From the NCBI GenBank assembly GCA_030390025.1, contig JASTWF010000228.1:496001-560000 (forward strand): a stretch of DNA of 64,000 bases. The letters run 5' to 3'. The stretch is from Squalus acanthias. Taxonomy: Eukaryota. The stretch's first letter is position 1. The number at the start of each line of letters is the position of its first letter. The notes under the pieces are model-generated. The model was not told the origin of the DNA. It saw only the letters and a list, made by a program, of their open reading frames with translations, and made no database searches. Shown here in pieces: positions 19,149 through 21,272 of this stretch. The position numbers and the translations under genes were made by a program.

Positions 19149-19875
19149 GAACATGGTGGGGATGTTGGGACCGAATAGGTTCAAAGTTAACCAATGGATG
19201 TTTATCTCCTATTCTCCTGAGACCCCAACCCCCACAAGGCTGTTAGACCCCGCAACTCTCCAATATTGTCAAACATTCCCTCCGCCCGCCCCCTCCCCCC
19301 CACCCCCCTACCCATGCTCCAATATCCCATCTTCAGTCCTGCTGGACCCAGAATTCCAACCCCCCCCCCCCCCCATCCGCAGTTTACTCCCAGATCCCAG
19401 GCTAATCTCTCACTGCTCACAAATTCCTAGATTGCAATCCCAGTTCTCCCTAATCCTAGAACTGCCCCAATTCTCCCAGACCTGAGACATTCTCACCAAT
19501 TCCCACCGATCCAAGATCCCACTCCCAATATTCACAGATCCTAGGATCTGTTTCAGTGTTCCCAGAATCCTGGGACCCTCCCCCCGCCCTTTGCATTGCT
19601 CTCAGTTCCTGGGATCCCCCTCTTCAAATTACTGCTGAGACCCTGAAATTTCATTCCAGTAATACCATTTGGTGGGCCATGTTCCCAGTGCTCCCAGGGG
19701 CGCCCCAATGCCAACATGTCAGCAACCCTAGTAATAATAATGGCATAACATCTCTGTCCTAATAAAACTTCCAACTCACTACGAGCAATGCCACAGGAAA
19801 TCTGCGTTTCCTGAATTTCCAGCATCCGCAGTATTTTGCTTTTGCCACAGGGAATCTGTTAGTTTCTATAACATG

Positions 19876-20039
19876 ATGCGGAGATGCCGGTGTTGGACTG
19901 GGGTGGACAAAAGTGAGAAGTCGCACAACACCAGGTTATAGTCCAACGGTTTTACCTGACGAAGGAGCAGCCGCTCCGAAAGCTTGTGATTTCAAATAAA
20001 ACCGTTGGACTATAACCTGGTGTTGTGCGACTTCTCACA
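19876..20039 (+). mobile_element. 164-bp Penelope-like pLTR-only insertion with a hammerhead core
   Basis: 13-bp TSD tttctataacatg, perfect 42-bp inverted repeat 19913-19954/19997-20038, and CTGACGA-a-ggagc-agcc-gctcc-GAAAGCTT at 19956-19985. Confidence 0.82.
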
Positions 20040-20362
20040 TTTCTATAACATGGTTGAGCTTTTAGTGTGTTTGAAGGCGATAACCTACACCAGACGAGCT
20101 GAAAAGAGATACTTTGTCCAAATCTATAACATGTTCATATGAACAGATCCAATACAATTGCTTACTTTCAAAAGTTACTTTGGCATTCAATTAATTCTCT
20201 ATTGATTGACTTTGTTCCATTTCCAGGTAATAATACAATAACTGCTTTTAAGAACATGGTTGCAAAAGGATGACATAATAATAGAGAACCTAATATGGTA
20301 TTTGTTGTGAATTCATCATTAATCATTTGTTTTTCTTGAGGAAACTCTGTCAGTTAGGGCGT

Positions 20363-21272
20363 CATAGAATCATAGAATGGTTACAGCACAGAAGGAGGCC
20401 ATTCGGCCCGTTGAGCCCGTGCTGGCTCTCTGCAAGAGCACTTCAGCTAGTCCCACTCCCTTGCCCATTCCTGGTAGCCCTGCAATTTTTTTTCCGTCAG
20501 GTACTTATCCAATTCCCTTTTGAAAGCCACGATTGAATCTGCCTCCACCACCCTTTCAGGCAGTGCATTCCAGATCCTAGCCACTCGCTGAGTGAAAAAG
20601 TTTTTCCTCATGTTGCCTTTGGTTCTTCTGCCAGTCACCTTAAATCTGTGTCCTTTGGTTCTCGACCCTTCCGCCAATGTCCAGACCCCTCATGATTTTG
20701 AACACCTCTATCAAATCTCCTCTCAATCTTCTCAATCCAAGTTTCTCCACGTAACTGAAGTCCCTCATCCCTGGAATCATTCTCGTAAAGCTTTTCTGCA
20801 CCCTCTCTAAGACCTTCACATCCTTCCTAAAATGCGGTGTCCATAATTGGACACAATTCTCCAGTTGAGGTCGAACCAGTGTTTTATAAATGTTCATCAT
20901 AACTTCCTTGCTTTTGTACTCTCTGCCTCTATTTATGACTTCACCTGAGGAAGGAGCGATAGTTCCGAAAGCTTGTGATTTCAAATAAAACTGTTGGACT
21001 ATAACCTGGTGTTGTGCGACCTCTCAATTCTATTTATGAAGCCCAGGATCCCGTATGCTTTTTTAACCGCTTTCTCAACCTGCCCTGCCACCTTCAACGA
21101 TTTGTGCAGATATACCCCCAGGTCTCTCTGTTCATGCACCACCTTTTGCATTGTACCCTTTAGTTTATGTTGCCTCTCCTCATTCTTCCTACCAAAATGT
21201 ATCATTTTGCACTTTTCTGCGTTAAATTTCATCTGCTATGTGTCCGCCCATTTCACCAGCCTGTCTATGTCC
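20363..21272 (-). mobile_element. CR1 3' part, interrupted at 20939-21028
   Basis: KFNAEKCKMIHFGRKN, LVRPQLENCVQLW and FFTQRVARIWNALP; (catagaat)n tail on the left. Confidence 0.92.
20939..21028 (+). mobile_element. 90-bp Penelope-like fragment consisting mostly of a hammerhead motif
   Basis: 11-bp TSD tctatttatga; tcac-CTGAGGA-a-ggagc-gata-gttcc-GAAAGCTT-gtga; same family as 19876-20039. Confidence 0.8.

Follow-up and report, generated by a model that had tools for sequence, protein, structure and literature searches.

The locus described here raises the question of whether a 164-bp hairpin-like unit carrying a hammerhead motif, found in a 64,000-nucleotide stretch of Squalus acanthias DNA (contig JASTWF010000228.1, positions 496,001 to 560,000 of the forward strand; hereafter the window), is itself a mobile ribozyme or the residue of an insertion by another element. 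The anatomy of the unit, as set out in an earlier note made from the letters alone, was confirmed at every coordinate. A 13-bp direct repeat (19863-19875 and 20040-20052), which can be extended on neither side, encloses 164 bp; the longest perfect inverted repeat (IR) measures 42 bp (19913-19954 and 19997-20038) around a loop of 42 nt (19955-19996), and an extension of 37 nt (19876-19912) is present on the left side only. The hammerhead core as a whole occupies 19956-19985. The perfect 42-bp IR together with the flanking 13-bp repeat lies far beyond chance expectation, and reversed-pattern controls for the pattern searches of the unit's parts gave 0 matches. An AATAAA does follow the hammerhead core, as the note had it, while its placement in the loop did not hold, the motif lying mostly in the right IR arm. 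The features are as follows.

19863 to 19875, no strand: left TSD, 13 bp, of which the final 4 nt also fit the element's tail end and ORF start context
19876 to 19912, minus strand: the Penelope-like element (PLE) 'tail', the 37 nt that directly precede the ATG of the ORF in full-length units
19913 to 19954, minus strand: the remaining 42 nt of pLTR in the antisense arm, the one with the tail, ending 41 nt downstream of the hammerhead core start
19952 to 19955, plus strand: junction region with a 1-nt arm overlap, forming a replacement 5' strand for hammerhead Helix I
19955 to 20038, plus strand: sense, tail-less arm, 84 nt, beginning 1-2 nt before the hammerhead core
19956 to 19989, plus strand: type I hammerhead motif of the minimal kind, with cleavage predicted between 19985 and 19986
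19995 to 20000, plus strand: AATAAA, pLTR-derived, with no poly(A) after it
19997 to 20038, plus strand: right half of the perfect 42-bp inverted repeat, the same pLTR bases as 19913-19954
20039, no strand: single base which, by sequence comparison, fits neither the parent haplotype nor the TSD
20040 to 20052, no strand: right TSD, of which the first 3 nt also fit the element
20938 to 21029, plus strand: solo arm of a younger subfamily, 98.9% identical to an intact unit and unmentioned in the earlier note

Microhomology is present at both boundaries of the unit, since the element is matched by the left TSD over its final 4 nt and by the right TSD over its initial 3 nt. Both arms carry the same rare haplotype, the antisense arm (19913-19954) being identical to same-haplotype copies such as that at L129; the sense arm starts 5-6 nt inside the putative RNA 5' end, and at the junction (19952-19955) one parental C-G pair of Helix I has been turned into U.G. 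An empty site for the left flank was found for 0 of the 40 scored among 182 candidates in the assembly, and the perfect arms and TSD are compatible with a recent insertion.

Sequence comparison shows the unit to consist of two copies, placed head to head, of a Neptune-type PLE's pLTR end, the clade being assigned by the linker motif. A hammerhead 25-mer has 59,854 exact matches in the 3.7 Gb genome. The sequence common to copies on its upstream side ranges in length from a few bases to over 1,100, and its translation contains an RT thumb, the linker C-x4-C-xx-C and a GIY-YIG domain. A 141-aa probe from this element gave 23,392 candidates, of which 150 were scored and all 150 were 100% identical; 20 of these (hand count) lay in 921-codon open frames, some of them in 3,138-bp tandems. 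The parent unit is 3,138 bp long and its ORF, counted from the ATG up to which the 37-nt tail runs in full-length units, encodes 892 aa with an RT (RVT_1, E=2.7e-8) and, at the C terminus, a GIY-YIG domain (E=8.8e-4, under the curated Pfam cut-off), along with the motifs DKG, YIDD and WYIG and the linker at residue 753. The pLTRs arise from a tandem or partial-tandem arrangement, comprising 3,138-bp tandem units and partial upstream copies. A C-terminal GIY-YIG domain with a CX2-5CxxC linker, as found here, is described for Neptune and Nematis PLEs (PMC8557442; this and the other papers are cited for those parts of their text that were available), and the linker would place the element with these two clades, by motif alone, which cannot separate them. 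None of the sequencing runs listed as containing the element is recorded as RNA; contigs from four possibly-RNA runs span the pLTR and the ORF start and are uninformative on start or strand. Intact 3,138-bp units whose ORFs are identical at the protein level are arrayed in tandem at L124 (G000:C2:211212500-211222499), L125 and L126, and given these the family looks recently active.

With a parent encoding an intact RT and GIY-YIG ORF in the genome, the suggestion that the unit is a very short PLE insertion with an inverted pLTR is upheld. The unit shows what is expected of EN+ PLE insertions, namely an adjacent inverted, 5'-shortened copy, a 37-nt tail where 30-40 bp at one end is reported (PMC8557442, PMC3846280; a tail is also described in PMC11167929), and a TSD. 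The resemblance is closest to Pen2a_Av (PMC3846280; scheme in PMC8557442), which shares the head-to-head pLTR copies, the tail on one arm, the TSD and a TATA with an Inr-like motif; here, in contrast, no ORF lies between the repeats, only the two ends are present in a total of 164 bp, and the TSD is 13 bp as against 8-10 bp. The architecture is already published, and the locus is an ordinary dead transposon stub.

The hammerhead motif comprises the core at 19956-19962, an extra A, a 5-bp Helix II, GAAA and a palindromic 4-nt remnant of Helix III; the 3' strand of Helix I is formed by 19986-19989, and three of its four 5' bases (19952-19954) lie inside the IR arm. Every minimal hammerhead feature listed in the available text of PMC4209133 is present in this copy with the core intact, including the extra base after A9, the G10.1-C11.1 pair and the palindromic 15.2-16.2. 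Across 49 distinct variants the core is invariant save at N7 and H17, and Helices I and II are backed by variation, 95.9% of 441 cells being paired as against 25-49% in slid controls; one Helix I pair is C-G in 22 variants and U-A in 22, which, the variants being related, possibly reflects one or a few compensatory events. Loop II is the most variable part across subfamilies (2-8 nt), and the downstream 80 nt to the ATG are nearly fixed. An Rfam scan gave no hammerhead match at E<=10, which is uninformative for a motif without Helix III; its 9 matches at that level were mainly to miRNA-type hairpin models, all under the gathering score.

The earlier note had pictured the hammerhead as clamped by the IR, a view that folding predictions turn around. 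The predicted pairing probability of Helix I is 0.01-0.03 in the unit's own RNA as compared to about 0.27 in the parent leader, and enforcing the hammerhead fold in the unit's RNA would cost 2.8 kcal/mol; in these models the IR weakens the ribozyme fold by competing with Helix I. Minimal hammerheads have been reported as inactive as monomers and weak as dimers (PMC4209133), and hammerhead self-cleavage to require the protein (PMC11167929). In metazoan PLEs, hammerhead pairs lie 100-700 bp apart on opposite strands, with most occurrences being single motifs from truncated PLEs (PMC4209133); unlike these, just one arm keeps the motif here and its Helix I has been rebuilt by the junction.

The mode of origin was assessed in 156 loci sampled from contig C1 within its first ~10 Mb and drawn from the match lists of the hammerhead 25-mer and the tail end; tailed arms are favoured in this sample, and pairs that exceed the loci in length are missed. 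The top-30 similarity matches to the unit, being biased to similar junctions, were excluded from all counts. The sample contained 82 head-to-head pairs with 75 different junctions. One tail was present in 79 of the 82 pairs, none in three and two in no pair, and an apparent TSD of 12-14 bp flanked 62 of them. The median insert was 219 bp among the 80 pairs with a TSD of at least 7 bp, 20 of which measured 200 bp or less, and the 164-bp copy lies at the short end of this commonest class of insertions. Most junctions form an asymmetric, non-palindromic loop, like that of the unit; many carry overlap or templated filler, and palindromic junctions and snap-back-like fillers also occur.

Arm lengths proved to be coupled, with both arms short in 57 pairs, both long in 20 and mixed in 5 (77/82 concordant; P=6e-14), at a threshold of -25 that was picked after the histogram had been viewed (positions are numbered from the start of the hammerhead core, negative values being upstream). 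The coupling also held within the long pairs (rho 0.63, n=20), where it would also be expected from simultaneous synthesis by a dimer. The simplest reading of the coupled lengths is that two template classes exist, using a near and a downstream tail copy respectively.

Several sampled loci were more elaborate. Short templated repeats of arm ends mark the junctions of L221, L224, L240, L051 and L036, resembling the outcome of repeated template switching or microhomology-mediated repair. A cluster at L027/L028 (G000:C3:100936200-100936700) contains several alternating arms, including one pair tailed on both sides, and represents either a complex multi-arm insertion or nested insertions. At L048/L049 (G000:C1:889200-889500) two long copies lie tail to tail with ~30 bp between them; each seems to be the partner end of neighbouring insertions into a single target.

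The position at which arms stop bears on the strongest competing explanation, in which the parent and the on-site assembly are the same and the short arms result from ordinary 5' truncation of cDNA begun at the 3' end of a long RNA; any pile-up would then reflect either joining by microhomology at the palindrome of Helix I or release of the enzyme past the ribozyme fold. Heavy 5' truncation of PLE insertions is known (PMC8557442), the median insertion for a Chlamys pair is 128 bp (PMC9977147), and the overlap or templated filler at many junctions is in keeping with such an origin. The arm ends were, however, concentrated at one edge: 68 of 235 arms ended at 0 to -9, a hazard of 0.037/nt as against 0.002-0.004 at -20 to -49, with 17 of the 235 censored on reaching the 300-nt end of a short reference. 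Solo arms joined to host DNA cluster at this same edge (8 of 41 at risk, 0.020 against 0.003/nt), contrary to what truncation would lead one to expect. The local-sample pile-up is an edge 10-15 nt wide. Genome-wide, with the pattern of one subfamily, 2,934 purine breaks fell at -7, against 14,959 copies going on with a pyrimidine, and the counts at -8 and -10 were 435 and 93, a 30-fold fall within 3 nt upstream which likewise speaks against truncation, although microhomology between arms (TCAC/GTGA of Helix I) may shift the -7 count and perhaps inflate it. A stall of the RT, moreover, would be expected at the 3' side of the structure and not past it.

The edge tracks a putative transcription start. 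In all nine references of the main subfamilies a TATA occupies -37 to -40 and position -7 is an Inr-like A, 30-33 nt behind it, and in all seven references of the other subfamilies a TATA-like motif lies at -43 to -45, with an Inr-like A at -13/-14 in five. Short arms of these other subfamilies extend further up (9/21 at -14 or beyond, as compared to 7/83; P=5e-4), and this shift of the edge with TATA/Inr position counts further against truncation; the youngest subfamily has a weaker edge, with 9 of 42 arms ending at 0 to -19 against 68 of 168. A G preceded the break in 81 of the first 100 listed at -7, in 54 of 100 at -8 and in 59 of 93 at -10 (hand counts), an excess at -7 (P=7e-5 against -8, P=0.009 against -10) that is not creditable to a cap since about 16 of 25 G cases inspected by eye could stem from the partner arm. 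Arm ends at +26 to +33, around the ribozyme cut site, numbered 8 of 235, with no major hot spot, noting that arms picked by the 25-mer cannot end there. A splice acceptor at the Helix I edge, as in D. virilis (PMC4209133), was rejected as no AG acceptor precedes the core in the references. A TATA and an Inr-like TCACT are present in a rotifer pLTR (PMC3846280), and the TATA-less internal promoter of D. virilis Penelope (PMC2377424) counts against the start-site reading.

Two further observations qualify the picture. Among 17 full-length ORF copies with a delimited upstream pLTR, just two begin within 20 nt of the putative start and none at -7, which is a point in favour of truncation, and 6 further full-length copies sit inside tandems; full-length copies rarely begin at the putative start, so read-through multimers or circles would also be needed as templates. 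In addition, the tail-bearing arm of the 164-bp unit ends at +41, short of the putative start, so that this arm was trimmed or truncated in any case. Taken on the arm-end distributions, the short stubs are likely run-off copies of the RNA 5' end and not truncations of a 3-kb copy, and ordinary 5' truncation is an unlikely account of them. The description of the hammerhead arm as an extreme 5' truncation is accordingly probably wrong, its end falling within the cluster at the putative transcription start. Clustering of ends at a putative start is undescribed for Pen2a_Av-type insertions in the available text of PMC3846280 and PMC8557442, and a search of the main texts of the open literature turned up no account of PLE stubs as start-site run-off products, which does not imply its absence from print.

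Our preferred reading, to which we give a probability of about 0.6, is that a high-copy Neptune-type PLE left the unit as a dead-end insertion, likely assembled at its landing site, with short arms bounded by the putative start. Of its parts, we consider it probable that a double-strand cut is followed by priming at both 3' ends, at points that bound the tail, and then by joining of the cDNAs. The GIY-YIG endonuclease would cut both target strands ~13 nt apart; each target 3' end would prime reverse transcription with the help of microhomology over 3-4 nt, the start points being the far end of the 37-nt tail for one and its near end for the other; microhomology or end joining would then link the two cDNAs. 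Priming from both target ends accords with the single tail per pair, with the narrow range of TSD lengths and with the presence of microhomology at each outer end. It is reasonably probable that short insertions start at the 5'-proximal tail copy and long ones at the downstream tail copy in read-through RNA. For short insertions the enzyme would start at the tail copy ~130 nt from the RNA 5' end, and hence neither arm would extend beyond the transcription start, which would lie 7 nt upstream of the hammerhead core; the hammerhead would be a passenger of the 5' leader. There is, in our view, an even chance that the commonest product is a palindrome of two 'strong-stop-like' cDNAs, run off at the TATA/Inr start abutting Helix I and joined.

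In vitro, a Poseidon protein cuts and extends both target strands, with two internal RT start sites bounding the tail and the hammerhead being dispensable (PMC11167929). Poseidon_Ac resembles the present element in having its tail between two recurrent cDNA start points, AT-rich targets and a hammerhead upstream of the tail, but it belongs to a different clade and its tail lies inside the ORF, whereas the tail ends at the ATG here, which limits transfer of these in vitro data.

That the mirror arm instead comes from one cDNA priming itself or folding back, or from synthesis on an antisense template, has been put forward for rotifer Penelope (PMC3846280) and would account for the palindromic junctions, the snap-back-like fillers and the rare haplotype common to both arms. 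We consider this distinctly unlikely, given that the 37 nt on the antisense arm are missing from the sense arm, that microhomology to the target is found at both outer ends, that most junction loops, including the 42 nt here, are asymmetric and non-palindromic, and that both strands are extended in vitro (PMC11167929).

The earlier note had also entertained a non-autonomous, ribozyme-only family, and proposed to test whether many copies share the inversion junction. The junction 31-mer was found at 7 loci as compared to 35,538 tail-bearing ends of related subfamilies, and these 7 loci are of 7 different haplotypes, differing in tail variants, loop II, right-hand end and arm ends; carrying the variants of different subfamilies, each arose anew. 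The unit's own haplotype has 12 matches, of which the other 11 all lack the junction and 4 of the 11 continue upstream into the ORF end. Two or more consecutive direct-tandem units, each with a hammerhead, would identify a retrozyme, and a single inverted pair is present here; nor was a junction and haplotype common to many TSDs found genome-wide or in the sampled pairs. The copy has no TATA box and so would not be transcribed or moved by itself. The non-LTR retrozymes (10.64898/2026.07.22.740005) also have a type I hammerhead of pLTR origin and no ORF, but they are direct tandem repeats with a ribozyme per unit, in contrast to one inverted pair with one ribozyme and a junction that is not inherited. 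A retrozyme-like hairpin family whose 164-bp unit is transcribed and moved in trans is therefore highly improbable and largely refuted, for while non-autonomous PLE derivatives are known (10.64898/2026.07.22.740005; PMC8557442) and the junction recurs at 7 loci, these differ in subfamily variants, same-haplotype matches lack it, the locus has neither a tandem of the unit nor a promoter, and the predicted Helix I pairing is poorer than in the parent leader. Judged by these comparisons, the unit is a dead-end stub among tens of thousands and not a mobile ribozyme itself. Five loci (L008, L009, L015, L016 and L023, on contig C26 and two small contigs) have identical junctions and flanks, i.e. one insertion multiplied by segmental duplication of the host and not by transposition.

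A second, unrelated insertion lies 0.9 kb from the 164-bp unit. This solo arm (20938-21029) corresponds to the loop and right arm without an inverted partner, is flanked by an 11-bp TSD (20928-20938 and 21029-21039) and begins exactly at the putative transcription start (-7). It belongs to the youngest subfamily and is inserted within a LINE-like repeat, and its target sequence recurs, in the same or near-identical form, as the TSD at L082, L089, L091, L153 and L208, suggesting a preferred site inside a host repeat. A second recurrent target is shared by three independent insertions (L090, L190 and L210).

The origin of the inverted pLTRs and tails of PLEs is called unresolved in PMC8557442 and is partly addressed in PMC11167929. 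The value of the present stubs is collective, as sharp predictions for assays in vitro or in cells follow from the tail count, the coupled arms and the TATA/Inr-tracking edge; the many identical intact ORFs in the genome are a possible enzyme source for such work. Isolated hammerheads in such genomes are mostly by-products of insertion and not retrozymes. Should the strong-stop-like reading be true, the inverted pLTR, the tail on one side and the great number of solo hammerheads in such genomes would all be accounted for, and the tens of thousands of stubs would represent a base-resolution map of the element's transcription start.
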